Translations under genes and position numbers: made by a program
Shown: in pieces, positions 2,197-30,207 of the stretch
How the letters are laid out: every line of letters starts with the position of its first letter
How positions within the stretch are numbered: position 1 is the stretch's first letter
The notes under the pieces: model-generated
The model's database searches: none
Told to the model about the DNA's origin: nothing
What the model saw: the letters and a program-made list of their open reading frames with translations, nothing else
Origin: Candidatus Hermodarchaeota archaeon
GTDB lineage: Archaea > Asgardarchaeota > Lokiarchaeia > Sigyniarchaeales > SOKP01
DNA: 30,207 nt
NCBI GenBank assembly: GCA_048885535.1
Contig: JBHLLO010000012.1
Span: 31,684-61,890 of the forward strand
Direction of reading: 5' to 3'

Positions 2197-2337
2197 TATC
2201 ATAAATATAAACACAAATATCACCTAGATATCACCAGAATTGGTGTTAGGATAAATTTCTTCCTAAATTTTTATATATTGCGAAATTCATAATTTAGTTA
2301 ACGAAATTTAAAGAAATATCACGATTTTGATGATAAC
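2197..2337 (+). promoter_or_regulatory. Candidate operator region with repeated TATCA(C) motifs and short inverted repeats
   Basis: ATATCAC at 2217, 2228 and 2316; CACCA-gaat-TGGTG at 2232-2245; TTAGGA-N9-TCCTAA at 2246-2266; TATCA-N9-TGATA at 2317-2335, directly before the GTG start. Confidence 0.3.
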
Positions 2338-4269
2338 GTGGGTGCCGACAAAAAATCACTTATGATAGAAAGACATTTGCGGATATTAGGGCAGAAAGTT
2401 CGAATAGAAATCTTAAAGAGATTGAATACTAGCCTAATTCCCTTATCTTTTTCAACGCTTCAAAAGGAAATATGTGATATAAATCAGACTAATATTAATT
2501 TATCATTCCATTTGAAAACTCTTAGAGAAGCAAATCTAATAGAATCATTAGAAGAAGGCTATCAAATCTCTATTTTAGGAAAAAAAATTTTAAATAATAT
2601 TATAATGATGGAACAGATTCTCAATGCCCAAAATAAAACGATAATGATAAGAACGTCTAAATATTCTAAAGAACCATTTAATATCAAAAAAATTGAAGAA
2701 TATTTAATAAAAGAGGGAGAGTTGGATGAAAATCAAGCAAAACAAATTGCACAAGAAGTTCAAGAACGCCTTGATAAAGCTAATATTGAATATCTGACAG
2801 CTCCTCTAATGAGGGAATATATTAATGCAATATTATTAGAAAATGGTTTAGAAAAAGTAAGACATAAGCTTACCCGGTTGGGAACACCTCCTTACGAAGC
2901 TTTCATTTTATTTACAAATAAATCAGTTAATCCGGACCAATTCTTGGAGCGATTAGGTTCTGATGTTTCTGAGCAATTTCTTCTATTGAACCTATTACCC
3001 AATCATTTAGCTGATTTATATTTATCTGGGGATATAACTCTCTTGAATTTGAATAACTGGGGATTAAGACCTCTGAGTTTTTACATCAATACTGAATCAA
3101 TATTAAATTTTATTGAGAAATCTCTTTCGATTGAAATCAATGATATTTCAAGTTTATTCGAATTTGCCATGATAATTCTAAAATTTTTTGAGATTATGGC
3201 TTTATTCAAACCGTATTTTTCAGAAGATATCCTTCTTGGAAGCTTTAGTGGACTAATAAACTCAATTATTGGTTTTAAGAATCAAGGCTTACTAAACCTA
3301 TTTATAAATCAAATCTGTAAATCAAATAAATCTTATACCTTAGACTTTTCGTGTCAAAACTCTGATCATCTAATTGAACATTTCTTTACTTCATTGAGTT
3401 CACTTATCGATTCTAAACTTAAAAACCAAATGCCCTTACTTTTAATTGATTACTCGAAATTAAATATGCTTGACTCTAATTTGCTATGTCAAAATATAAT
3501 CCCAAAATTAAAAAACTCTTTAATTTTTTGTAATAAAAAATCAAGCTTATTGAATTCCTCAATTATTAACCTAAAACTAAATAACATTTGCGATCTTAGA
3601 GGGAATAAAATCATATTAGATAAAATTTTAATTAATTTACATTCTATAGCTTTACAAAGTAATCAAAATGATGATAAATTTTATGATTTAGTTGAGGAAC
3701 GATTGAAAAGGGTATTTGAACTGTATAAAATTAAGTATGAATTGGTCTACAAGAAACTAAATCCATTGAAAGAATGGGAAAAAATAACTGATTCCTTCTT
3801 TAATGAAAAAGGACCTACACTTTTAAGGAATGCCATAAAATCTGTCTCCTTTTTTGGATTAAATAAAGCAATAAAAACCCATTGTGGAATTGAGCTTGAT
3901 CGAATTGATACTAGCCAAAAATTTGCTTTGAAAATTATATCCTTGATGAATAAACTTGTCAGTGAGATAGCACAAAATGAGAACGAAAATTATATCTTGA
4001 GTCAACCCCATGATGGTGAGTATTTATATCCCTCGATAAATGCCCTAAATTTGAGTTCAGAAGAAGAATTCAGGGGATATTCTATGAATATCATAAGAAC
4101 AGAATCAAATTTACCGCTTGAAAAACAGATATCAATATTTAAAAAATTTGAATCAAAACTTAATGGTGGGGCTATTTTTAATTATTATTTAGGACTAAAC
4201 GATCTTTCAATAAAAGATGTAATTGATTTTTTATCCAAATCCAAGTTATCTGCATTCTGTATTAATTAA
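2338..4269 (+). CDS. Winged-HTH (ArsR-like) + ATP-cone + degenerate, C-terminally truncated class III ribonucleotide reductase (NrdD)-like protein
   Basis: N-terminal RIEILKRL...LSFSTLQ...LSFHLKTLREANLIE...GYQISILG is wHTH-like. IRTSKYSKEPFNIKKIEEYLIKE...LTAPLMREYINAILLENG is an ATP cone. RLGTP, LADLYLSGDI, INLHSIA, SVSFFGLNKAI and LNGGAIF resemble archaeal NrdD. No C-terminal CxxC or RxxGY motif is present. Confidence 0.8.
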   Translation: MGADKKSLMIERHLRILGQKVRIEILKRLNTSLIPLSFSTLQKEICDINQTNINLSFHLKTLREANLIESLEEGYQISILGKKILNNIIMMEQILNAQNKTIMIRTSKYSKEPFNIKKIEEYLIKEGELDENQAKQIAQEVQERLDKANIEYLTAPLMREYINAILLENGLEKVRHKLTRLGTPPYEAFILFTNKSVNPDQFLERLGSDVSEQFLLLNLLPNHLADLYLSGDITLLNLNNWGLRPLSFYINTESILNFIEKSLSIEINDISSLFEFAMIILKFFEIMALFKPYFSEDILLGSFSGLINSIIGFKNQGLLNLFINQICKSNKSYTLDFSCQNSDHLIEHFFTSLSSLIDSKLKNQMPLLLIDYSKLNMLDSNLLCQNIIPKLKNSLIFCNKKSSLLNSSIINLKLNNICDLRGNKIILDKILINLHSIALQSNQNDDKFYDLVEERLKRVFELYKIKYELVYKKLNPLKEWEKITDSFFNEKGPTLLRNAIKSVSFFGLNKAIKTHCGIELDRIDTSQKFALKIISLMNKLVSEIAQNENENYILSQPHDGEYLYPSINALNLSSEEEFRGYSMNIIRTESNLPLEKQISIFKKFESKLNGGAIFNYYLGLNDLSIKDVIDFLSKSKLSAFCIN

Positions 4270-4274
4270 ATATG

Positions 4275-5195
4275 TTAATCACTTAGGAGCTCAGCCAGAA
4301 TAGCTTTTCTCATAGGGATTCCATAGTAAGTTTGTTTAAAATAGATAGCTTTTTTTGAATTATCTACTTCAGGAGAAACTTCAGTTAATCGGGGTAAAGG
4401 ATGCATAATTTTAAAATTATCTTTTGTCATTTTTAGATCTTCATTAGTAAATATATAGAAACCCTTAACTCTATCATATTCTTCAATATCAGCAAATCTT
4501 TCCTTTTGGATTCTGGTTACATATAATACATCTAAAATTTCTAAAATATCTCTATATTTCTCTACTTCCTTATATTTTACCTTTCTTTGTTGTAAATATT
4601 CTTTATCTCTATTTCTAAGCATTAAATCCTTAGGGCTTATAAAATAAATATTTACATCATAATTTGACAGGAGTATTGCTAGAGAATGAACGGTTCTCCC
4701 ATATTTTAGATCTCCCATAATACCTATATTTAAGCCGTCTAATTTGCCTATTTCTTCAGCTATGGTTAATAAATCTAATAAAGCTTGAGTTGGGTGTTCC
4801 CCACTTCCAGATCCTGCATTTATTACAGGGACTTTCGCAAACTTAGCGGCTAAAGTGGCTGCTCCCTCTAATGGATGCCTAATGACGATACAATCACTAT
4901 AATTCTCTACAGTTCGAACTGTATCTGCAATACTTTCTCCTTTCTTTATTGAAGAAACACTTGCAGATGAAAAACCAATTACTTTTCCTCCTAATCTGTG
5001 CATCGCAGATTCAAAGCTTAAGCGTGTTCTTGTAGATGGTTCAAAAAACAATGTTGCTAGAATTTTTCCTCTAAGTAGATCCAAATTATTGTCGTTATGA
5101 AGCATTATTTTAGCCTTATTTAATATATATTCAATATCTTCTCGATTGAAGTCTCTAGCAGTGATTATACCTTTATGAAATTTCTCTTTGAACAT
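4275..5195 (-). CDS. pyrB: Aspartate carbamoyltransferase catalytic subunit
   Basis: FFEPSTRTRLSFE, HPTQALLD, GDLKYGRTVHSL, TRIQKER and HPLPR motifs. Confidence 0.98.
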   Translation of the reverse strand: MFKEKFHKGIITARDFNREDIEYILNKAKIMLHNDNNLDLLRGKILATLFFEPSTRTRLSFESAMHRLGGKVIGFSSASVSSIKKGESIADTVRTVENYSDCIVIRHPLEGAATLAAKFAKVPVINAGSGSGEHPTQALLDLLTIAEEIGKLDGLNIGIMGDLKYGRTVHSLAILLSNYDVNIYFISPKDLMLRNRDKEYLQQRKVKYKEVEKYRDILEILDVLYVTRIQKERFADIEEYDRVKGFYIFTNEDLKMTKDNFKIMHPLPRLTEVSPEVDNSKKAIYFKQTYYGIPMRKAILAELLSD

Positions 5196-6665: not shown

Positions 6666-7022
6666 ATGAGAATTCAAGAGTTTATAACCTTCTTAGGAAC
6701 GAAAAATCTAAATAATACTGCTTATTTTTATCAAAATGTATTAGGCTTAAAGTTATATAAAGATCAAGGCTTATGTAAAATTTTTAATGTCACCAAAGAA
6801 TCAAAAATAGGTTTTTGTTCACATATGCCTATTATTTCAGCAGATAAAGGTCCAATTTTAACATTAGTTGTAGAAAATGTTGAAGAATTTTATAAAAAAC
6901 TAATAAATTTAGGCCAAGAAATTCCCAATCCGCCAAAAATAAATCCAAAATTTAATATTTACCATTTCTTCTTTTACGATCCTAATGGTTATACACTAGA
7001 AATACAAAAATTTTTAGATTAA
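6666..7022 (+). CDS. VOC/glyoxalase-bleomycin resistance family protein
   Basis: FYQNVLGLKL, LTLVVENVEEFYKKL, FFFYDPNGYTLEIQ. Confidence 0.88.
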   Translation: MRIQEFITFLGTKNLNNTAYFYQNVLGLKLYKDQGLCKIFNVTKESKIGFCSHMPIISADKGPILTLVVENVEEFYKKLINLGQEIPNPPKINPKFNIYHFFFYDPNGYTLEIQKFLD

Positions 7023-7355
7023 TTCCTTTTTAATCTCATAAATTTTCTTATAATATTCAAAATTGAGATTATTCATATCTTGTATAATATCCGCTTCAAG
7101 TTCTTTTTCTCCGTTAACTTTAATGTTTAGATCACCAATTACATTAATTAAATCATTCTTCTTAAATTTAAAGTCAACATCCTTAAGATTTACCATAATA
7201 TCTCCGGTTTGATCATCTAAGACAATTATATCATTGTCAATTCTTTCTTTAAAATACCCTGTAACTTGAATTCGCACATCTTCTTCAGTAATATCTTTTA
7301 TCATTCTTTGTTTTGCATATTGATGCTCGTTTCTTCCATATTCCATACAAATCAA
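7014..7355 (-). CDS. Single OB-fold protein, RPA14/RPA3-like replication protein A small subunit (start may be the ATG at 7346)
   Basis: QRMIKDITEEDVRIQVTG...LDDQTG...LINVIG...EADIIQDMNNLNFEYYKKI resembles the Thermococcales RPA14 layout (OB fold plus C-terminal trimerisation helix). Confidence 0.72.
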   Translation of the reverse strand: MICMEYGRNEHQYAKQRMIKDITEEDVRIQVTGYFKERIDNDIIVLDDQTGDIMVNLKDVDFKFKKNDLINVIGDLNIKVNGEKELEADIIQDMNNLNFEYYKKIYEIKKELI

Positions 7356-14804: not shown

Positions 14805-15290
14805 TTGGTAAAGGTTTTTACAACTAAATCAAAAATTTGTTTTGTTGGAGAAGGGGGTGTAGGGAAGACCTCTTTATTATCTTTATTACAAGGGAGAGAG
14901 GTTCCAAAGAAGAGAATCCCAACTGTTGGATTAGAAGTTGAGGATTCCATTCTAAATGGAAAAAAAGTAAGTATTTGGGATTTAGGGGGTCAAAAGCGAT
15001 TTAAATTTATGTGGAAGGATTTCTTACGGGGTGCAGGGTTAGCAGTACTGGTGTGTGATTCAACTGAGGATAGTGTTGAGAAAACAAAGGAAATATATAG
15101 CCGCTTTGAACGTAGTTTGGGTACAAAAATCATTGCTATCGCTAATAAACAGGACTTACCAGGAGCTTTGAGTGCAAAAGAAGTTCAAAAAAGGTTAGGC
15201 GGACTTAAAACGTATGGTATGACTGCTATTCGTCCTGATTTACGCGAACGAATGAAAGAAATATTAGAATATGAAGTCGCCACGTTTTAA
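14805..15290 (+). CDS. Small Ras-superfamily GTPase, Arf-like (TTG start)
   Basis: G1 GEGGVGKT, G2 IPTVG, G3 WDLGGQ, G4 ANKQD, G5-like MTA; stand-alone 161 aa. Confidence 0.92.
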   Translation: MVKVFTTKSKICFVGEGGVGKTSLLSLLQGREVPKKRIPTVGLEVEDSILNGKKVSIWDLGGQKRFKFMWKDFLRGAGLAVLVCDSTEDSVEKTKEIYSRFERSLGTKIIAIANKQDLPGALSAKEVQKRLGGLKTYGMTAIRPDLRERMKEILEYEVATF

Positions 15291-17215: not shown

Positions 17216-17821
17216 TCAATACCGTAGGCTCTCATTAACATTCCTATAATCATTTGCTAATTTTCTAGTTTCAACATTGCCACACCTTGTGCATCTTAAT
17301 TTATTATGTCCAATTTTTTCAAGGGGAGTACCACAAATAACACAATCAGCATGGATTACACCCAAATTATTTCCGACAGTACTTAATTTAAATTCATTTG
17401 TAGTCTGCTCGATTACCTTAGCACGTACTATATCAGTTATCTGAAAAGCATCAGAAATTTTATCTACATATTTATGAGAGATCTGGGAGACATGAATATT
17501 TCCAAAATAAGAACTATTAAAATGAAGCTTATTATTTATTGTATGAAAATTTAACCCTATAGAATACTGTCTTAAAAAAAGAACAGTTCCTATTACAATA
17601 TCACCTATTTTTACTGTTTTTCGATCCTCTTCTTGATGACTCTTAATTTCGATCTCTTTTTTATTTTTATCAATTAAAATTATGCCTGTTTTAGTAGCAT
17701 AGATTTTACCATCCTTTATATAAGAAGACTGCTTATCAGGAAGAAATTCCTCGACAACTCCTAAATATTGACCCGTAATAACGATGTCTTTATTATTAAT
17801 TGCTTTTTTCATATATTTCAA
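17216..17821 (-). CDS. csl4: Exosome RNA-binding cap protein Csl4
   Basis: GQYLGVVEEFLP, KIGDIVIGTV, IHVSQIS, DIVRAKVI, LGVIHADCVICG...CTRCGNVETRKLA zinc ribbon. Confidence 0.95.
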   Translation of the reverse strand: MKYMKKAINNKDIVITGQYLGVVEEFLPDKQSSYIKDGKIYATKTGIILIDKNKKEIEIKSHQEEDRKTVKIGDIVIGTVLFLRQYSIGLNFHTINNKLHFNSSYFGNIHVSQISHKYVDKISDAFQITDIVRAKVIEQTTNEFKLSTVGNNLGVIHADCVICGTPLEKIGHNKLRCTRCGNVETRKLANDYRNVNESLRY

Positions 17822-21958: not shown

Positions 21959-24900
21959 ATGCCTAAAATTTTATCATCAATCAAAAATTTAAGAGATCGC
22001 CTTAGAGCCGGTGTAACTATTAAATCTCAGAATGTTTTATTTTTTATCGCAATCAGTTTAGTAGTTATATTAGCAATTGTTATAAGGTTATCTCCCGCTT
22101 ATTTGGGCAATAATTTAATTAAGGCATTTGATCCATGGATTCAATATTACAATGCAGAATATCTTTCCCAACATTCATTATTTGAATATTTCAACTGGCA
22201 TGACTATAAAAGTTGGTTTCCTCAAGGATTTAACAGATATAATTTACGACCAGGACTAACTTTTACGGTAGTGATAATTTATAACTTCTTTAATTTCATT
22301 GGAATACCAATTTCTTTATATGATATTTGCTTTTACTTTCCTGCTTTTATGGCAGGTTTAACTGTTTTTGGTATGTATCTATTGGGAAAAGAAGCCTTAA
22401 ATAAGCAATTGGGCTTAGTTGCTGCCTTTTTCCTCGCGTTTAATCCGGGTTACATGCAACGTACAGTCGCTGGGTTTTTTGATAATGAAACTATAGGAGT
22501 TTTTGCTTCTATAATGACTCTATATTTCTTTATAAAGACAATCCGAACAGGAAAAATTACGGATTCTATTTTTGGAGGATTGTTTTTAGGTTATCTTTCT
22601 CTTAGTTGGGGTGGTTATTACTTCATTTATTACTTATTACCAATTACCTGTTTTATAATAATTCTTACGAAAAAATACACGACTAATGTTTTAATAGCTT
22701 ATGCTGGGGTGGAAGGAACAGGCTTACTTACTTTTATGCTGTATGTTAAGTTTAAATTTGACACTTTTTTTACAAGCATAGTGTTAGGTGGAACTTTCAT
22801 TTTTGCCATTATTTTAGTAATATATCATTATATCCACATCAAGAGGAATGAATATCCTCGGTTTTATAATAGATTAATAAACTTTGTTAAGTGGGGATTG
22901 ATTCCAGCAATACTAGTTCTAGCTATTATTATTTGGATAGACCCTGACTTAATTCCATTCGGATTTGGTGGGAGATTACAAACCGTCCTCAGTCCGTTAT
23001 TGCGAGATGCATTTAATCTTACAGCCTCGGTAGCTGAACATGCACCCAGCTCATGGAGTGTGTTTTACTATAATACATTAATTCCATTAATGTTGATACC
23101 ACTTGGGTTGTTCTTTTTATTCAGAAGATCGAATGCAGCCGATATATTATTGATTGTATTTGTCTTATTTTTATTTTACTTTACAGGCAGCATGATTCGT
23201 ATAATTTTACTGTTTGCACCAGCAGCTAGTTTAGTTGGTGCCTATGGATTAGTCCATGTCTTAAAAATATTTGGTAGTTTTAGACGATATGATTCTATAA
23301 AAATAAAAAGAAAACGACAATTAAGACGAATAGTGGGATACCAAGAGGCTGCCTGGGTATACGGTCTTGTTGGAATTATGTTACTTGCACAAGTATGGCA
23401 TGCATCAAATTATTCAGCAACTCAACTTGGCTCAAGCCAGCTAGCTCCTGGAGGATATTATCATGATTGGGAAGAATCTCTAACCTGGATGAAGACTAAT
23501 CTGCCAGGAACTACCGTTGTAGTAAGTTGGTGGGATTATGGGTACTGGTTAACCCCTATCGGAAATATGACTACGGTAAACGATAATGGGACAATAAATT
23601 CCACGAGAATCGGTCTAACGGGCATGGCATTTATGCAGTCAAATGAGATATATAGTGCAAAAATTTTCAAACTCTTAAATGCAGATTACGTATTAGTTTA
23701 TTTCGGCTATCTATTCAGCCAATTGGGCGGAGACGAAGGGAAGTGGCCTTGGATGATGCGGATCTGTAATGATCATTACGAGAAGTATAAAAGCTGGGGA
23801 TTAGAAGAAGACAATTGGGGTTCAAATTCAGTCTTTGTAGAATCTGAAATTTATAATGATACATCAGGGCGTCCGTTCAAAATATGGTTTCAATCTCAAG
23901 TTGTAAGATTAATGTTCTGGAATGTTTCAACGGCTCCATTTTCTGGAAATCCTCAAACATTTGAAGATTACTATAGAGACCAAATTAATAATAGAAGAGC
24001 GGATAACGATGGGGATCCATGGGTGAATAATATACCTCAAAATGGAGCTTATCGTTCTCAAGTATTTGTACCATGGTATTTCTCTCAAAATGGATTTGTT
24101 AAGTTGTATAAGATGGATTATACGGCATTAGAATCATCCTTCCAAATTAAAGATCCAGAAGTATTTGATACGGGATATGCTACTTTCAAATTAAAAAACA
24201 CTGGTACCAAGGATTTGGAAATCAGGGATGTTTTAATAAATGGTCAAGATTACGATTTTTACCTTGGGAAAGGCATAGAAACCAACATTTTAGCTGCTGG
24301 AGAAGAAGATTTAGCTTGGGTTGATATTAAATCGAGTGGTTATCAATTTAAGAAGAATGATGTAGTAAATATTTCAGTAATAGCTTATTCTGAAGCTTTA
24401 GAAGGCAGGACCTTTGCTTTTTCCAACAGTACAAAAAAATTCTTTGTAAAAGAAGCAGTACCAAGTGAAATTAGAATAAATGAACTAAATAGTAAAGTCG
24501 TGCAAATAAATGAAAATCAAGCAGAAATCTATTTGGAAGTAGAAAATACTGGCGAATCTGTTGTAATTTTAGATGAATTTTACGTTGATTTAGAAGATAA
24601 CACTTTATCTGATAGAACTTATTTAGAGGGATCTCCAATATTAAATCCTGGACAAAGTGCATATGTTAAGCTAACTACAGACCTCACATTTTTTCCATTT
24701 GATCTTGAAGGCATTGTTCATAAAATTGGAGTTATTACTCCGGGTGGCGTAAAAGATGAGATTTTGTTAGCGCCTAATTATGAGAATTACGATTTAAGTC
24801 TGCTATCACAATATAGAGCCATATCACCGGAGGGTTCAGTCATTCCATCTAGTTCTTTGAGAAAATATATGCCGCTTGAATTAGATAAAACATTTGCTTA

Positions 24901-25855
24901 CAGCTATGATAATGGAACTACATTATTGAGTGTTAAAGTGAAAAACACAGGAAATGTAATTATGGCTCTTGATTCAGTATATCTCACCCAAACGGATTTG
25001 TGGACGGAGGTTGATTTTTATCCTAAAAAAGGAAACCTTTTACCAAATCAAGAGAAAACAATAAAAATCATTGCTTCAGATTACTTTGATATCGATGTAA
25101 ATGAAGATATTGGCATTGTAGTCTCGGCTCTTTTCGATGGATCAACAAAAGCAGCAGATGTTGGCTTCATTCAAAGCATTAATAGTTCAGCAGATATTAA
25201 AATTATAAAAAATGTTTATGGGAAGCAAGCTTCATATATTGCTGCTAATGAAACTGGACAGCTTCTAATAAAGAATACTGGAGTAGAACCCGTTAGATTA
25301 AATAACATATATATTAATGAAACAAGTGTATTATCTTTTGAAACTGATGTAAATTTTCTTTATGGAGATATTGACTTAGATTTTCAAGAATGTGCTTTAA
25401 TTTCATTTAATGTTTCGGATTTCAAGATAAATGCTACAAATACAATTAAAATAAAAGTTACAACAAATACATCCGCAGTTTCTTCCACCATATTTAATGC
25501 TTATGTGGATTCAACTCTTTATAATATTGATATTGACGATACTCCCACATATGCAGATAGAGGTCTAGATGAAGTTATAATTCAGATTATAAATAACGGT
25601 CTAAAGAATGTTACAATAGATTCAATTTATATCAATAATACATATATTCCGTTAGCAAGCTTTACTTTCATAACTGGAAGTTCCTTTGAAGTAGAAAACT
25701 CTGGTGGATTTATCACGCTTTCAATTTCACTCACTGATATTGAAACATTTTTGGGTTTAGGTGTAGGAACTGTGGCTGTAGGCGACAAATTAATTTTATT
25801 GACTCGCAGTGAAGAAGGTGCTGAAGATACGCATCAAGAAATTGTAAGAGCTTAA
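21959..25855 (+). CDS. aglB: Oligosaccharyltransferase AglB/STT3 with long repetitive C-terminal extension
   Basis: FDPW, GFFDNE, SVAEH, WWDYG, DNGT and DEGKWPWM (DK motif); multi-TM N-terminal half. Confidence 0.95.
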   Translation: MPKILSSIKNLRDRLRAGVTIKSQNVLFFIAISLVVILAIVIRLSPAYLGNNLIKAFDPWIQYYNAEYLSQHSLFEYFNWHDYKSWFPQGFNRYNLRPGLTFTVVIIYNFFNFIGIPISLYDICFYFPAFMAGLTVFGMYLLGKEALNKQLGLVAAFFLAFNPGYMQRTVAGFFDNETIGVFASIMTLYFFIKTIRTGKITDSIFGGLFLGYLSLSWGGYYFIYYLLPITCFIIILTKKYTTNVLIAYAGVEGTGLLTFMLYVKFKFDTFFTSIVLGGTFIFAIILVIYHYIHIKRNEYPRFYNRLINFVKWGLIPAILVLAIIIWIDPDLIPFGFGGRLQTVLSPLLRDAFNLTASVAEHAPSSWSVFYYNTLIPLMLIPLGLFFLFRRSNAADILLIVFVLFLFYFTGSMIRIILLFAPAASLVGAYGLVHVLKIFGSFRRYDSIKIKRKRQLRRIVGYQEAAWVYGLVGIMLLAQVWHASNYSATQLGSSQLAPGGYYHDWEESLTWMKTNLPGTTVVVSWWDYGYWLTPIGNMTTVNDNGTINSTRIGLTGMAFMQSNEIYSAKIFKLLNADYVLVYFGYLFSQLGGDEGKWPWMMRICNDHYEKYKSWGLEEDNWGSNSVFVESEIYNDTSGRPFKIWFQSQVVRLMFWNVSTAPFSGNPQTFEDYYRDQINNRRADNDGDPWVNNIPQNGAYRSQVFVPWYFSQNGFVKLYKMDYTALESSFQIKDPEVFDTGYATFKLKNTGTKDLEIRDVLINGQDYDFYLGKGIETNILAAGEEDLAWVDIKSSGYQFKKNDVVNISVIAYSEALEGRTFAFSNSTKKFFVKEAVPSEIRINELNSKVVQINENQAEIYLEVENTGESVVILDEFYVDLEDNTLSDRTYLEGSPILNPGQSAYVKLTTDLTFFPFDLEGIVHKIGVITPGGVKDEILLAPNYENYDLSLLSQYRAISPEGSVIPSSSLRKYMPLELDKTFAYSYDNGTTLLSVKVKNTGNVIMALDSVYLTQTDLWTEVDFYPKKGNLLPNQEKTIKIIASDYFDIDVNEDIGIVVSALFDGSTKAADVGFIQSINSSADIKIIKNVYGKQASYIAANETGQLLIKNTGVEPVRLNNIYINETSVLSFETDVNFLYGDIDLDFQECALISFNVSDFKINATNTIKIKVTTNTSAVSSTIFNAYVDSTLYNIDIDDTPTYADRGLDEVIIQIINNGLKNVTIDSIYINNTYIPLASFTFITGSSFEVENSGGFITLSISLTDIETFLGLGVGTVAVGDKLILLTRSEEGAEDTHQEIVRA
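24180..25855 (+). repeat. Five degenerate protein-level repeats of about 110-130 aa in the AglB C-terminus
   Basis: LKNTGTKDLEIRDVLING (~24191), VENTGESVVILDEFYVD (~24539), VKNTGNVIMALDSVYLT (~24938), IKNTGVEPVRLNNIYINE (~25268), INNGLKNVTIDSIYINN (~25589). Confidence 0.75.
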
Positions 25856-25969: not shown

Positions 25970-27982
25970 GTGATTCAACTTATGAGCATCAGTTTTAAGA
26001 TAAAATCAGAATTCGTACCGCAAGGGGATCAACCGTCAGCTATTGAAGCTCTTAAAGATGGAATTAGAAAAGGAAAATCATTCCAAACCTTGTTAGGAGC
26101 GACAGGCACTGGAAAGACATTTACTATCGCTAATATTATACAGGAGATACAGAAGCCTACATTAATTATGGCACCCAATAAAACTCTTGCTGCTCAACTT
26201 TATAATGAATTAAAGGAACTATTTCCTGAAAATGCAGTTCATTATTTCGTATCTTATTACGACTATTACCAACCAGAAGCATATCTTCCTATAACTGGAC
26301 AATATATTGAAAAGGATTTTAGTGTCAATGAGGAGATTGAGCGCCTCAGGCTTGCAGCTACTCATGCTATTAGAACCAGAAATGATGTAATCATTGTAGC
26401 TACAGTATCGTGTATATATGGGATAGGTTCACCTGAAGAATGGGAAAAAGTCTCAATATCTCTAGGCGTTTCTCAAAAGATTAATCGAAGGGATATTATT
26501 AGGGGACTTATCAAAATGAATTATGAGAGAAAGGACATAGAATTTAGACCCGGAGTAGTAAGAGTAAGAGGAGATATTATTGACATCTTCCCAGCATATC
26601 TGGAAACGGCTATACGAATATCATTGTTTGGAGATGAGATTGAATCAATTCAAGAAATCCATCCTCTATCAAATGAGGTTATAAAAGAACTTACTAATTG
26701 TAGAATCTTTCCAGCTACCCATTTTATTATCCCTGAAGAAAATAAGATTAAAGCCTTAGAATCGATCGAAGAAGAATTAAATCAACAGATAAAGTTGTTT
26801 ACGGATAATAAGCAATATGCTGAAGCTCAACGCATCGAAAAAAGAGTAAAATTTGATTTAGAAATGATGAAAGAAATGGGTTGGTGCAAAGGAATCGAAA
26901 ATTATTCAAGACATTTAGATGGTAGATCTGTTGGTTCGCCACCCATGTGTTTAATAGATTATTTTCCCAATGATTTCCTAATTGTAGTTGATGAGAGCCA
27001 TATAACTATCCCTCAGATTCATGGGATGATAGGAGGTGATCGCTCTCGAAAGAAGAACCTTGTAGAATATGGATGGAGACTTCCTAGTGCTTTTGATAAT
27101 CGCCCTCTTACGTTTGAAGAATGGGAAAGTAAAATTAAGTTCTTAATTTTAATGAGTGCGACTCCAGGAGATTGGGAACTCGAGAAATCAAAAGGAATTT
27201 CAGCGGAACAGATTATCAGGCCAACAGGTTTAGTAGATCCAGAGGTTGAAATACGACCAGCAAAGAATCAAATTGATAATTTATTAGGTGAAATCAGAAA
27301 AGTTGTGGAAAGTAAAGGAAGGATTTTAATAACCACACTAACCAAAAGGATGGCTGAAGATATCGCAGAATATTACTCCGAATTAGGTATTAAGATCTCA
27401 TATCTTCATTCAGAAGTAGATACTGTGGAAAGATTTGACATTTTAAGGCAATTAAGAGATGGAACATTTGACGTCGTCGTTGGAATCAATCTTTTAAGAG
27501 AAGGGCTTGATTTACCTGAAGTTAAATTAGTGGCGATTTTAGATGCTGATAAGCTTGGTTTCTTAAGAGATACAAGATCATTGATTCAAACCATTGGCAG
27601 AGCTTCTAGAAATGTTGAGGGAAAGGCTATTTTGTATGCGGAAAAAATTACTACTGCAATGAAGGCTGCAATTGACGAAACTAATAGAAGGAGAAAAAAA
27701 CAAGAGAATTTTAATAAAGAAAATAATATTACCCCACAAACTATAAGAAAGAATATTCTTAATTCTCTTTCTGAAGAACAAGAGTATAAAGAAAAAGAAA
27801 TAAAGAGATTAAAAAAAGTTGTGAATGAAAAAGTCAAAGAGTTAGAAAGTGAAGGAGATTTAGAAATTATAATACAATATCTTGAAAGTAAAATGTTTTT
27901 AGCTGCTAAGGAACTCAGGTTTGAAGATGCAGCATATTTAAGAGACAAGATTATAGCATATAAAAAAGATTATACGGCATAA
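25970..27982 (+). CDS. uvrB: Excinuclease ABC subunit B (start may be the ATG at 25982)
   Basis: PQGDQP, LGATGTGKTFT, FVSYYDYYQPEAY, GIENYSRH, VDESH, GINLLREGLDLPEV, QTIGRA and C-terminal UVR motif FEDAAYLRD. Confidence 0.99.
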   Translation: MIQLMSISFKIKSEFVPQGDQPSAIEALKDGIRKGKSFQTLLGATGTGKTFTIANIIQEIQKPTLIMAPNKTLAAQLYNELKELFPENAVHYFVSYYDYYQPEAYLPITGQYIEKDFSVNEEIERLRLAATHAIRTRNDVIIVATVSCIYGIGSPEEWEKVSISLGVSQKINRRDIIRGLIKMNYERKDIEFRPGVVRVRGDIIDIFPAYLETAIRISLFGDEIESIQEIHPLSNEVIKELTNCRIFPATHFIIPEENKIKALESIEEELNQQIKLFTDNKQYAEAQRIEKRVKFDLEMMKEMGWCKGIENYSRHLDGRSVGSPPMCLIDYFPNDFLIVVDESHITIPQIHGMIGGDRSRKKNLVEYGWRLPSAFDNRPLTFEEWESKIKFLILMSATPGDWELEKSKGISAEQIIRPTGLVDPEVEIRPAKNQIDNLLGEIRKVVESKGRILITTLTKRMAEDIAEYYSELGIKISYLHSEVDTVERFDILRQLRDGTFDVVVGINLLREGLDLPEVKLVAILDADKLGFLRDTRSLIQTIGRASRNVEGKAILYAEKITTAMKAAIDETNRRRKKQENFNKENNITPQTIRKNILNSLSEEQEYKEKEIKRLKKVVNEKVKELESEGDLEIIIQYLESKMFLAAKELRFEDAAYLRDKIIAYKKDYTA

Positions 27983-28030
27983 ACGTGAAACTTTTCATTT
28001 ATAATAAATAAAATAATAAATGCATTTAGT

Positions 28031-30207
28031 ATGAATAACGATTTTATTATTATAAAAGGAGCAAGGCAAAATAACCTTAAGAATATTGATGTAAGAATTC
28101 CTCGTAATAAATTGGTTGTGATTACAGGTATTAGTGGTAGCGGGAAATCAAGCCTAGCAATGGATACATTATATGCTGAAGGTCAAAGGAGATTTTTAGA
28201 ATCATTATCAAGTTATGCTCGTCAGTTTTTAGGAGAGATGGATAAGCCTGATGTTGATTCCATAGAGGGATTATCACCAGCAATAGCTATTGAACAGAAA
28301 GCTTTGTCTAAAAACCCAAGAAGCACAGTAGGAACAGTCACTGAAATCTATGATTATTATCGATTACTATTTGCAAATGTTGGGACTCCTCATTGCCCAA
28401 ATTGCGGTAAAGAAATAAGACCTCAAACACCCCAACAAATCATTGAGCAAATACTCGAAACAATTCCAGAAAACGAGAAATTTATAATTAAAGCACCAGT
28501 TATTCGGGATAGAAAAGGAGAATATAAAGAACTATTACAAAGTCTCAAAAAACAAGGATATCTTAGAATAGAAATTGATAATATACAATATACTCTTGAT
28601 GAAGAAATAACCATGGATAAAAATGTAAAACATAATATCAATGTAATAGTTGATCGCCTTATAATGAAGAAGGATATTAGGGCAAGACTTGCAGATTCAA
28701 TAGAGACCGCATTAAGTTTGACTGAAGGTATCGTATCAATAGAAGTAGTTGACAAAGAAGAACAAATTTATTCAGAGCATCTTGCATGTATTGATTGTGG
28801 CATTTCATTTCCACAACTAGATCACAAAATGTTTTCCTTTAATATCCCTCACGGTAGTTGTAAATACTGCAGTGGTTTAGGTACTGTGATGGAATTAGAT
28901 TACGGATTAATATTAGGAGATGATTTAAATGTTCCAATTCAGGATACCCCTATAAGAGATATTCCCGGATTTGGTTCATTAACAAGTTATTCTTGGCAAT
29001 TATTAAAACAAGTTGCTAAATACTATGGGTTTGATACAAATAAAACTAATATTAAAAACATCGATCCTGAAAAATTAAATAAAGTGTTGTATGGTACTGG
29101 TGATGAAACTATTGATTTTCATTTTAAAAGTGAAAATAACGGGTATAATAACAATGATATAAAATCTTACCATGTCGTTAGATCCTTCGAAGGAATTATC
29201 CCTTGGCTTCAAAGAAGGTATATGGAAACCAATTCTGAATGGGCGAGAGAAATATACGAAAGCTTTATGAATAAAGTAAATTGCCCACAATGTAATGGTC
29301 AAAGATTAAAACCAGAGAGCTTAGCTGTAACTATTAATGATTTGAATATAGCAGAATTATCAAATTTATCAGTTCTTGATTCAATCAAATATTTTAATGA
29401 ACTAGAACTCAGTGAAGTTCAAATTGCGATAGTGAAAGAAGTCTTAAAAGAAATATCAGCTAGACTCTCTTTCTTAGATAATGTTGGTCTAGATTACATT
29501 ACTTTAAGTAGAAGATCAGATACCCTTTCTGTAGGAGAAGCAGAAAGAATACGTTTAGCTACACAACTAGGTTCAAGTTTAGTCGGTGTATTATATGTTT
29601 TAGACGAACCGAGTGTTGGGTTACATCAGAGGGATATTGATCGTTTAATCAAAATGTTAGAAAAATTAAGAGATTTAGGAAATACTGTCATTGTAGTTGA
29701 ACATGATGACGCAATTATGCGAAATTCAGATCATATAATCGATTTAGGACCATTAGCAGGTGAGAGAGGTGGAGAAATAGTAGCTGAGGGTCCCATTGGT
29801 ATAATTTTAAAGTCAAATACACTTACAGGAGAATATCTTTCAGGAAAAAAGAAAATTTTATTACCAAAAAAAAGAAGGCAACTTCTTAATGAATATATTG
29901 AAATTTTAGGAGCTCGAGAAAATAATTTAAAAAACATTGATATAAAAATTCCATTAGGAGTGTTCACATGTATTACAGGAGTATCCGGGGCAGGTAAAAC
30001 TAGTTTAATTATTGATTGTTTATATAAAGGACTTCACAATCTAATAAATAAAAGAAGTTCAAAAATAATCACTGGAGATTTTAATGAAATAAAAGGTTAC
30101 GAAAATATTGATAAGATAATAAATATCGATCAATCTCCAATTGGTAGAACACCTCGTTCTGTACCTGCAACATATACTAAAGCATTAGATTATATCAGAG
30201 ATATTTT
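28031..30207 (+). CDS. uvrA: Excinuclease ABC subunit A, partial (runs off the window end)
   Basis: Manual translation: MNNDFIIIKGARQNNLKNIDV...TGISGSGKSSLAMDTLYAEGQRR, CxxC zinc modules, LDEPSVGLHQRD, VVEHD, second Walker A TGVSGAGKT, IDQSPIGRTPRS. Confidence 0.98.
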   Translation, partial: MNNDFIIIKGARQNNLKNIDVRIPRNKLVVITGISGSGKSSLAMDTLYAEGQRRFLESLSSYARQFLGEMDKPDVDSIEGLSPAIAIEQKALSKNPRSTVGTVTEIYDYYRLLFANVGTPHCPNCGKEIRPQTPQQIIEQILETIPENEKFIIKAPVIRDRKGEYKELLQSLKKQGYLRIEIDNIQYTLDEEITMDKNVKHNINVIVDRLIMKKDIRARLADSIETALSLTEGIVSIEVVDKEEQIYSEHLACIDCGISFPQLDHKMFSFNIPHGSCKYCSGLGTVMELDYGLILGDDLNVPIQDTPIRDIPGFGSLTSYSWQLLKQVAKYYGFDTNKTNIKNIDPEKLNKVLYGTGDETIDFHFKSENNGYNNNDIKSYHVVRSFEGIIPWLQRRYMETNSEWAREIYESFMNKVNCPQCNGQRLKPESLAVTINDLNIAELSNLSVLDSIKYFNELELSEVQIAIVKEVLKEISARLSFLDNVGLDYITLSRRSDTLSVGEAERIRLATQLGSSLVGVLYVLDEPSVGLHQRDIDRLIKMLEKLRDLGNTVIVVEHDDAIMRNSDHIIDLGPLAGERGGEIVAEGPIGIILKSNTLTGEYLSGKKKILLPKKRRQLLNEYIEILGARENNLKNIDIKIPLGVFTCITGVSGAGKTSLIIDCLYKGLHNLINKRSSKIITGDFNEIKGYENIDKIINIDQSPIGRTPRSVPATYTKALDYIRDI

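Follow-up and report, generated by a model that had tools for sequence, protein, structure and literature searches.

How a ribonucleotide reductase (RNR) could come to carry a DNA-binding domain, and what such a protein might do in the cell, is the question raised by a locus of the Asgard archaeon Candidatus Hermodarchaeota archaeon (assembly GCA_048885535.1). We analyzed a stretch of 30,207 nucleotides, referred to here as the window (contig JBHLLO010000012.1, forward strand, positions 31,684 to 61,890), in which a single plus-strand open reading frame (ORF) at 2338..4269 spans 643 codons counted from a GTG and terminates in ...SAFCIN*. An earlier annotation made from the letters alone, hereafter the original prediction, described the product as a winged helix-turn-helix (wHTH) joined to an ATP-cone and a dead class III RNR, and proposed it to be an archaeal analog of NrdR, the bacterial RNR-specific repressor that combines a Zn ribbon with an ATP-cone and is rare in archaea according to the available part of PMC9110341. 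Our analysis favors that proposal: with a probability of about 0.6, the gene would encode a nucleotide-sensing transcription regulator built from an inactivated class III RNR, a functional analog of NrdR. Sequence-based evidence for this reading includes the domain architecture, the dead barrel, a separate intact NrdD in the same genome, and the linkage of the family to RNR genes.

Pfam, a profile of the family and an AlphaFold2 model point to a three-part architecture. The model, built from an alignment of 114 relatives, has a mean predicted local distance difference test score (pLDDT) of 90.2 and a predicted template modeling score (pTM) of 0.81. At the N-terminus, Pfam matches DUF7347 (PF24038, E 1.9e-8), HTH_20 (PF12840, E 8.9e-6) and HTH_5 (PF01022), and the family profile retrieves the ArsR structure 6j05 from the PDB (E 3.5e-5) together with 17 more wHTH regulator structures. 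The model places helices at residues 20–31, 38–49 and 55–64 and wing strands at 68–71 and 74–77, a winged helix fold with a recognition helix, as in the ArsR/SmtB type. The predicted ATP-cone that follows scores 24.7 bits against PF03477, just below the Pfam cut-off of 25.8; among the wHTH-bearing relatives scanned, the same model gives 22.7 to 37 bits, the majority above the cut-off. An intact NrdD relative (P0246) has the same cone–linker pattern, RTS...YLTAPxIRE...RHKxTRLG, and intact NrdDs of this type carry two tandem cones, a canonical one ahead of a variant one; the wHTH therefore occupies the place of the first cone. The basic residues that hold the nucleotide phosphates in the P. copri NrdD cone are given as Lys7, Arg8, Arg87 and Arg91 in the accessible part of PMC11226230. 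In the studied family R105, R159 and R180 are invariant across the 114 relatives, and R175 is kept in at least 90% of them; the three invariant arginines could still stand in for the residues named in P. copri.

The remainder of the protein adopts the fold of a class III RNR. Pfam NRDD (PF13597) matches residues 430–643 with an E value of 4e-16 and is the only Pfam family listed for the barrel; since the match covers profile positions 282–505 of 562, the protein stops about 57 profile positions early. The corresponding NCBIfam NrdD match is sub-threshold, at 39 bits against a cut-off of 326. Structural comparison with VIA-align superposes model residues 197–643 on residues 120–674 of P. copri NrdD (8p27_A) with a Z score of 31.9 and a root-mean-square deviation of 2.9 Å over 429 residues; when the cone is included (model 100–643 against P. 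copri 1–674, which spans its ATP-cone) Z is 29.2, and against T4 NrdD (1h78, residues 26–537) model residues 195–643 give a Z of 28.4. The top Foldseek matches are all class III RNRs (8p2c_A, E 1.9e-18), followed by class I R1 proteins at about 1e-7, and the family profile finds the NrdD structure 9d3x with an E value of 1.9e-39. The model thus contains the ten-stranded α/β barrel of the RNR and pyruvate formate-lyase type. A phmmer search of the single protein, or of the cone alone, against PDB sequences returned nothing useful, and the family profile was required. The NrdD landmarks listed in the original prediction (RLGTP, LADLYLSGDI, INLHSIA, SVSFFGLN, QKFALKII and LNGGAIF) are all present in the translation. 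The middle, which it described as shortened and diverged, is still barrel in the model.

The catalytic apparatus of NrdD is absent from this barrel. We aligned the 114 wHTH-bearing relatives with two intact NrdDs, P0271 from the same genome and P0246. At the finger-loop columns (C387 and C388 of P0271) Cys occurs in 2/114 and 2/114 relatives, and at the column of the bottom, or second active-site, Cys (C180) in 1/114; the studied protein has S, I and S at these three positions. The cysteines that the studied protein does have in the finger-loop region, C384, C398 and C418, are retained in 4/37, 4/37 and 6/37 members of the close group (P0001 counted), and in 61 of the 114 relatives the stretch aligned with residues 380–432 is devoid of Cys. 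The HxHD motif, which holds the substrate triphosphate in NrdD (from the part of PMC11226230 available), reads GDIHVHM in the NrdD of the same genome, GDIHFHD in 9d3x and GDIHLHD in P0246; its counterpart in the studied protein is degenerate (Table 1). At the C-terminus, the structural alignment stops at P. copri residue 674 and the radical glycine of that enzyme is Gly711 (same source), so the chain ends before the Zn ribbon and the glycyl-radical domain. Neither a CxxC...CxxC pattern nor an RxxG[YFW] motif occurs in the studied protein. Together with the profile end at position 505 of 562, this bears out the early stop noted in the original prediction.

Erosion of the C-terminus is stepwise across the family. 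The Zn-ribbon cysteines are kept in 51–52 of the 114 relatives, the glycine of the radical column in 23, and the full RxxGY motif in a single member (P0182); the lineage of the window is at the extreme, with the whole C-terminal domain gone, and the 36 closest relatives end at the same point. The original prediction would have fallen if orthologs carried an intact RxxGY domain, or if a separately encoded glycyl-radical domain restored activity. The first is the case in that one relative only, and we rejected the second because the thiyl Cys and the HxHD motif are missing as well. Judged by these alignments, the barrel is catalytically dead as an RNR: thiyl Cys, second Cys, HxHD motif, Zn ribbon and glycyl-radical tail are all absent, as first proposed.

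The gene is maintained as an intact unit. Among the 120 best of 502 database matches, 119 are 634–672 residues long and one is a 569-residue partial sequence, with the same Pfam domains, and the 36 closest cluster representatives share the ...AF... tail and lack a Zn ribbon. The ratio of nonsynonymous to synonymous substitution rates (dN/dS) against the closest ortholog is 0.12 overall, 0.04 in the wHTH, 0.07 in cone and linker and 0.10–0.18 in the barrel, which points to purifying selection across the barrel, where the original prediction had asked for such a calculation; the values covering all domains come from one pair of loci (L012 and L013) with dS of 0.9–2.0, near saturation, and the ratios are rough. 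The middle of the barrel evolves fastest, at 48–62% identity to close orthologs. Conserved positions over the 114 members cluster in the recognition region of the wHTH, in the cone and in the linker. In the wHTH, R22, L29, H58, L59, L62, Y75 and G81 are kept in at least 90% of relatives; in the cone the conserved positions are R105, S107, E112, F114, I119, E126 and Y152–N163, and in the linker R175, H176 and L178–P184. R105, E126, R159, R180, G182 and P184 are invariant. Conserved barrel positions are few, with D226, G231, P245, N433 and G507 kept in at least 90%.

To place the protein among its relatives, we surveyed its distribution. A profile-free search of 1.84 billion cluster representatives gave 694 clusters at E ≤ 1e-3, 350 at 1e-10 and 130 at 1e-30, part of which are intact NrdDs that match only from residue ~100 on. 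The wHTH form, counted in Asgard genomes where the match begins at residue 20 or earlier, occurs in 31 of 121 sampled Asgard genomes and 7 of 26 families. Within the family of the window, 14 of 15 other genomes carry it, and the fifteenth holds only a fragment. Species-representative genomes contain at least 581 relatives, and the best 80 of these at least 581 are all from Bathyarchaeia; in an evenly drawn set of Thermoproteota, 135 of 201 genomes gave a match at E ≤ 1e-20, and almost all of these matches start no later than residue 15. Named members come from Jordarchaeia, Odinarchaeia, Promethearchaeota, Hodarchaeota, Bathyarchaeia, Conexivisphaerales, Methanosuratincola and Aigarchaeota/Caldarchaeum. 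The cultured aerobic ammonia oxidizer Nitrosarchaeum koreense MY1 has a member as well (WP_007551497.1), labeled 'anaerobic ribonucleoside-triphosphate reductase' by NCBI and 'Regulatory protein ArsR' by UniRef.

The family does not keep company with NrdD everywhere. Five ammonia-oxidizer-like or related genomes were checked: three have no NRDD-like match other than the fusion; in a fourth Pfam finds no NRDD, although a diverged fusion-type protein is encoded; and the fifth, of the Methanosuratincola type, has an intact NrdD too. That the family survives where NrdD is absent altogether means that its role is independent of class III chemistry. An intact NrdD is present in all five Asgard genomes with the fusion that we checked, four of which also have an RNR of class I/II type, and in four of five Bathyarchaeia genomes, the remaining one having the fusion form only. 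In one Bathyarchaeia genome (G125, locus L154) the sole NRDD match is a wHTH form of 771 residues that covers profile positions 8–562 and has a Zn ribbon and a GRSSYG tail. Two further NrdD-like proteins (P0234 and P0249) have two ATP-cones and no wHTH and, much like the studied protein, end at Pfam position 504, with the CC pair kept in P0249; they may be split or otherwise truncated reductases.

A separate, intact RNR is also encoded in the genome under study (3.09 Mb in 112 contigs, 91.6% complete), in line with the survey suggested by the original prediction. Three NRDD matches were found there: an intact NrdD, a 611-residue dead paralog and the studied gene. The intact NrdD (P0271, 711 residues) has an HSQCCRKF finger loop, a CPHC...CPKC ribbon and RITGY, and is 25–35% identical to the studied protein, in patches. 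An NrdG fragment with the radical S-adenosylmethionine (SAM) motif CNLNCSFC (CxxxCxxC) is broken by the end of contig C81. The window itself was correctly described as lacking nrdG, since none of the 21 NrdG-like radical-SAM matches of the genome lies on contig C12. In this 91.6% complete assembly we found neither a class I or II RNR nor any match to NrdR (TIGR00244), and at E ≤ 1 no NrdR model in NCBIfam matched the studied protein.

Two further observations concern the same genome. The second dead paralog (P0272, L002:1147-2982, on contig C37 and outside the window) has no wHTH. Over its first ~100 residues it is nearly the same as the intact NrdD, with an overall identity of 46%; a 27-residue deletion removes the CCR finger loop, and it lacks the Zn ribbon and Gly tail. 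Frames of 600–630 residues that match like P0272 occur in at least seven genomes of the family of the window, and downstream of P0272 lies a gene for a 470-residue RagA/Gtr1-like GTPase with a weak Folliculin-like N-terminal match. On contig C11 (34015-37227; L144), an 866-residue open frame joins a further DUF7347 wHTH to a large HdrA-like FAD/FeS protein, which suggests that wHTH–enzyme fusions recur in this genome.

We next compared the genes beside the fusion. In the family of the window the order is S12, S7, the fusion and a convergent pyrB; pyrB is present in 14 of 15 orthologous loci, the fifteenth being broken by a contig end, and S7 in 12 of 15. The same comparison showed pyrB adjacent in loci of two other Asgard families. 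In seven annotated loci of other Asgard families, pyrB lies beside or in tandem with the fusion in four. In one of these genomes the fusion adjoins an intact nrdD on the other strand and follows pyrB immediately (4-bp junction), with pyrI divergent; another locus has a pyrB–fusion tandem, and in two the fusion converges on pyrB, followed by pyrI. Three of the seven have no pyrB nearby, and in two of those three thiolase and oligonucleotide/oligosaccharide-binding (OB)-fold genes precede the fusion. Among 80 Bathyarchaeia loci, pyrB is found in 53, mostly immediately downstream and convergent, and pyrI in 31. In 14 loci the next gene downstream, read from the same strand, is an intact nrdD, and a fifteenth case is ambiguous. 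Contig ends break many of these loci, so the counts are lower bounds. The 14 nrdD products are 34–44% identical to P0271 over an aligned span that covers about 670–740 residues in twelve cases and is cut short in two.

Another association is with a different class of RNR. A group of fusions of about 700 residues, chosen by frame length and match type and not by neighborhood, occurs in 24 ammonia-oxidizer-like genomes; the one member identified by name is that of Nitrosarchaeum koreense MY1. Each has one class II nrdJ, which the fusion abuts in 23 of the 24: in 22 the genes are in tandem with the fusion upstream, in one they are divergent, and in the 24th genome they lie at the ends of different contigs. 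This linkage was read from coordinates, with one locus annotated. In two Aigarchaeota/Caldarchaeum-type loci (L158 and L159), members of 529 and 599 residues stand head to head with the gene for ornithine carbamoyltransferase (argF), a paralog of pyrB. The survey of Asgard and Bathyarchaeia genomes called for by the original prediction thus reveals a widespread architecture that adjoins RNR genes of two classes. Gene order that places the fusion beside two RNR classes and, in several orientations, beside pyrB is difficult to account for unless the fusion is functionally connected with nucleotide supply.

We also compared the DNA upstream of the gene with that of its orthologs. An operator-like direct repeat, ATATCACC-TAG-ATATCACC, precedes the promoter with an 11-bp period, and 12 of the 15 orthologous loci in the family of the window have a 19-mer like ATATCACCTAGATATTATC (up to six mismatches). 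In 9 of the 12 it starts 50–51 nt ahead of a TATA-like TTTTTATA, in AT-rich intergenic DNA that is otherwise unalignable. The promoter itself, TTCCTAAATTTTTATATA, we interpret as a B recognition element (BRE) and TATA box, and CTAAATTTTTATAT or a close variant is kept upstream of orthologs. The seed for the 19-mer was picked after viewing the data, and as a control we scanned the 3.09-Mb genome with a position weight matrix (PWM) derived from the 12 sites: the site in the window scores 28.0 bits and the runner-up 18.9. As the scan gave only one strong site, the 19-mer was rejected as a regulon motif; the genes around the runner-up on contig C106 are unrelated ones (SIR2-TPR, hypothetical, Ras-like and TBP). 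The repeat fits an autoregulatory operator or an upstream activating site, and it defines no regulon.

A second element, the CCGACAAAA box, is shared with leaders of intact nrdD genes, where it or a one-base variant occurs in the 5' leader in 12 of 12 genomes of the family of the window. The exact 9-mer has 16 copies in the genome, 10 of them outside ORFs of at least 100 residues (11 if an ATG start is used), against a non-ORF fraction of 13.9% (binomial 1e-5); for sixty permuted 9-mers, 7.2% of copies fall outside ORFs. Other copies precede orc1/cdc6, a 69-residue ribbon-helix-helix gene, a Ras-like GTPase, a TrmB-type regulator and hypothetical genes. Ahead of the intact nrdD, conservation extends over about 170 nt in 12 genomes (L001:960-1131 and L133-L143), in the order TATA-like AAATTTTTATATCA, GGTAAAATATTAACGnTAATAA (with the palindrome TATTAACGTTAATA in genome G000) and CCGACAAAA box, and this stretch may represent a long regulated leader or an operator array.

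At 21 ammonia-oxidizer-like loci (L155, L156 and L160-L178), the fusion–nrdJ spacer contains a conserved TATGAAnTTCATA palindrome. GATC words (TGATCTA, CGATCAT) reach 16.4 per kb upstream of the fusion and 12.1 per kb in the spacer, against 5.2 per kb elsewhere in these loci, a threefold and 2.3-fold enrichment; 7 of the 69 upstream copies fall in the stop region of the preceding gene. We regard this enrichment as a weak lead only.

Taken together, these features suggest how the protein could work. The N-terminal ArsR-type winged helix would bind DNA, and the ATP-cone, possibly with former allosteric surfaces of the barrel, would read the adenine- or deoxy-nucleotide pool. The dead barrel would act as a scaffold, probably dimeric as in NrdD, whose shape or oligomeric state changes with nucleotide and so affects the two DNA-binding heads. 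The protein may act on its own promoter by way of the 19-bp direct repeat, which lies 51 bp ahead of the TATA box, and its further targets would lie in DNA-precursor supply: the RNR gene of the host, of whichever class, and in many lineages, this one included, probably pyrB/pyrI. We infer DNA binding, nucleotide binding, dimerization and target genes from the comparisons above.

Several observations weigh against this reading. In the studied lineage the gene is not adjacent to an RNR gene, and linkage in related genomes is not independent evidence; part of it may be inherited synteny, as the thiolase and hydroxymethylglutaryl-CoA (HMG-CoA) genes that are also conserved neighbors illustrate. 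The 19-mer is essentially unique to its own promoter and was not seen before nrdD, nrdG or pyrB. The CCGACAAAA box precedes the studied gene in only 6 of 15 orthologous loci, could be read by another factor, and is not tied to the studied protein by anything in the sequences; its link to orc1/cdc6, where it lies 202 nt upstream in this genome, proved not robust and was set aside, occurring in 3 of 15 relatives (this genome included). Motif discovery in 73 Bathyarchaeia upstream regions yielded only the promoter word GTTTAAA and a tRNA gene (~15 loci). The cone, besides its sub-cut-off Pfam score, has R-T-S where the N-terminal pair of canonical cones is K-R, and could be the counterpart of an inner cone whose ability to bind nucleotide is uncertain. 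Finally, none of the eight sequencing runs listed for the stretch is recorded as RNA.

Given the neighbors of the gene, a narrower role deserves attention: the protein could be a nucleotide-sensing regulator of pyrB/pyrI, or of itself only, with the RNR linkage a relic of an nrdD tandem duplication. We consider this unlikely. The studied genome and 14 of 15 close relatives do have pyrB and not an RNR gene next to it, linkage to pyrB, both tandem and convergent, extends across Asgard families and to 53 of 80 Bathyarchaeia loci, the 19-bp site is confined to the gene's own promoter, and the divergent ornithine carbamoyltransferase of two Aigarchaeota-type loci points the same way. However, nrdJ is a different gene, which means that an nrdD duplication cannot have left behind the linkage to it in 23 of 24 ammonia-oxidizer-like genomes; the CCGACAAAA box is found in all 12 nrdD leaders examined; and the pyrB upstream region of the window contains nothing like the 19-mer or the box. 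In a more far-reaching version of the regulator hypothesis, the family would already have governed DNA-precursor supply before Asgard and TACK archaea separated, as the ancestral master regulator of archaea; its barrel would bind dNTPs at the former specificity site and, together with the cone, read pool size and balance, so as to control the RNR gene of any class, pyrBI and perhaps, through CCGACAAAA, orc1/cdc6. If so, an enzyme-derived sensor would have taken over the allosteric logic of RNR itself; we treat this version as speculative and rather doubtful.

The retained barrel invites explanations that do not involve transcription. A pseudo-subunit that tunes RNR activity, either paired with NrdD or bound to the RNR, and uses its winged helix for protein contacts or tethering, would agree with purifying selection on the barrel, including the NrdD dimer-interface region, with the linkage to RNR genes, and with the wHTH-less dead paralog of the same genome at 46% identity to the real NrdD. 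Such a partner role is quite unlikely in our view, as the family occurs in genomes without NrdD (the fusion being the sole NRDD-like match in three of five, with a class II enzyme as the adjacent RNR), the wHTH recognition region and the cone are the best-conserved parts, and identity to the NrdD of the same genome is low (25–35%) and patchy. Similarly, the barrel might have become a new, non-radical enzyme and the wHTH might make it an autoregulated 'trigger enzyme'. The NrdD-like protein GlyXL, in the available part of PMC13759103, offers a precedent, and the barrel has the dN/dS of 0.10–0.18 and the five positions kept in at least 90% of relatives that an enzyme might show; yet no conserved polar cluster replaces the Cys and HxHD residues, those five positions are also NrdD fold motifs, Pfam gives only NRDD for the barrel, and the varied decay of the C-terminus (Zn ribbon in 51–52 of 114, tail variable) fits a scaffold better, which makes this option very unlikely. 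As for a functionless decaying copy or an assembly truncation, the fast-evolving mid-barrel (48–62% identity) and the missing C-terminal domain are what such a remnant might look like, but the end point shared by the 36 closest representatives and 119 of the 120 best matches, a dN/dS of about 0.12, the occurrence of the family in the samples (31 of 121 genomes for Asgard archaea, 135 of 201 for Thermoproteota) and the confident structure model led us to reject it as having a negligible chance of being correct. The nucleotide-sensing transcription regulator, an NrdR analog in function, is the reading that we retain.

The features of the locus are compiled in Table 1. The original prediction gave the gene a start at position 2338; the ORF stands as described, and the start codon is more likely the ATG at 2362, because the database record identical at 100% (P0002) is 635 residues long and the two closest orthologs among those whose start was read begin with MIERHL. 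The true start is thus probably M9 and not the GTG.

Table 1. Features of the fusion gene and its surroundings, in window coordinates
Feature	Position	Strand	Basis
Operator-like direct repeat ATATCACC-TAG-ATATCACC, upstream of promoter, 11-bp period	2217..2235	+	Conserved in orthologous loci
BRE/TATA-like promoter TTCCTAAATTTTTATATA	2260..2277	+	CTAAATTTTTATAT or close variant kept upstream of orthologs
CCGACAAAA box in probable 5' leader, between GTG 2338 and ATG 2362	2345..2353	+	Common to nrdD leaders
Coding sequence, likely ATG start	2362..4269, stop included; alternative GTG at 2338	+	635-aa database match
ArsR/DUF7347-type winged helix-turn-helix, aa 14-87	2377..2598	+	Pfam, family profile, conservation, dN/dS 0.04
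Predicted ATP-cone, aa 102-174, and linker RHKLTRLGTP to aa 184	2641..2889	+	PF03477 (24.7 bits), structure alignment, conservation, dN/dS 0.07
Class III RNR α/β barrel, catalytic residues absent	2890..4266	+	VIA-align, Foldseek, family profile, dN/dS 0.10-0.18
Degenerate substrate-triphosphate motif, ITLLNL versus NrdD IHxHD	3034..3051	+	Alignments to P0271, 9d3x and P0246
Finger-loop-equivalent region, no conserved Cys	3520..3609	+	Alignment columns, Cys counts
pyrB, aspartate carbamoyltransferase catalytic chain	4275..5195	-	Pfam OTCace_N and OTCace; convergent neighbor

Annotation of the window agrees with the earlier description of a gene that lies amid replication genes and converges on pyrB. 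Upstream are genes for L30e, NusA, S12 and S7; beyond pyrB follow L44e, S27e, TFS, PCNA, PriL, PriS, Gins51, eIF2a, EF1a, RFC and others. The window also encodes an Arf/Roc-like small GTPase (14805-15290), a 1298-residue STT3 oligosaccharyltransferase (21959-25855) and, in tandem at its end (25970-30205), UvrB and UvrA, nucleotide-excision-repair genes of bacterial type. Two minus-strand frames, of 113 residues (7014-7355) and 201 residues (17216-17821), have no Pfam family at E ≤ 1e-5.

In the full-text literature within reach of our search, which extended to neither subscription journals nor supplementary files, we found no description of the fusion, and DUF7347 as a literature term returned no papers. 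Term searches within PMC9669993 and PMC9531940 gave no description of it among the passages retrieved, and a preprint on Tn7 and nrdD turned out to be unrelated. The large archaeal fusion family is apparently undescribed; ATP-cone-based regulation of nucleotide supply and the recycling of enzymes as sensor domains are already known in kind. Gene-level control of dNTP synthesis in archaea is largely unknown, and the family, carried by roughly one in four of the Asgard genomes sampled and two in three of the Thermoproteota, offers a concrete candidate. One carrier is the cultured ammonia oxidizer Nitrosarchaeum koreense MY1, in which protein and transcripts are open to study. If the proposed role is correct, it would be a clear case of a radical enzyme turned into the sensor domain of a transcription factor. 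Public records label these proteins 'anaerobic ribonucleoside-triphosphate reductase', a name that wrongly credits aerobes with making dNTPs anaerobically and leads to overcounting of RNRs when metabolism is reconstructed from metagenomes.

Several known systems share features with the protein. With NrdD (PF13597; 8p27, 9d3x, 4coi, 1h78) it has a homologous barrel, in which the fold motifs ADxxLSG and xNLPR are kept across the family, and it shares the ATP-cone and linker pattern of an intact archaeal NrdD subgroup; it differs in the missing thiyl Cys, second Cys, HxHD, Zn ribbon and glycyl-radical domain, in the added wHTH, and in the occurrence of its family in aerobes that have no NrdD or only a class II RNR. 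GlyXL, which the available part of PMC13759103 describes as a protein needed for glycine synthesis, an enzyme with an ACT-domain partner, is likewise an anaerobic-RNR relative without the radical residues; that part of the paper mentions neither a wHTH nor an ATP-cone, whereas the barrel studied here matches Pfam NRDD directly. ArsR/SmtB regulators (PF01022, PF12840, DUF7347) resemble the N-terminal 90 residues, which match their profiles and 6j05, but in place of a metal site in the wHTH dimer the putative sensor here is an ATP-cone with an enzyme-derived barrel (~550 residues). The proposed parallel in function is NrdR, whose gene often adjoins RNR genes (from the accessible part of PMC9110341), as in the fusion family, and the proposed logic is alike: nucleotide-dependent control of RNR transcription, often including the regulator's own gene. 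The studied protein differs from NrdR in several respects: it is not a member of TIGR00244, has a wHTH where NrdR has its Zn ribbon, and carries an NrdD-type cone (R-T-S) followed by a large dead RNR barrel.

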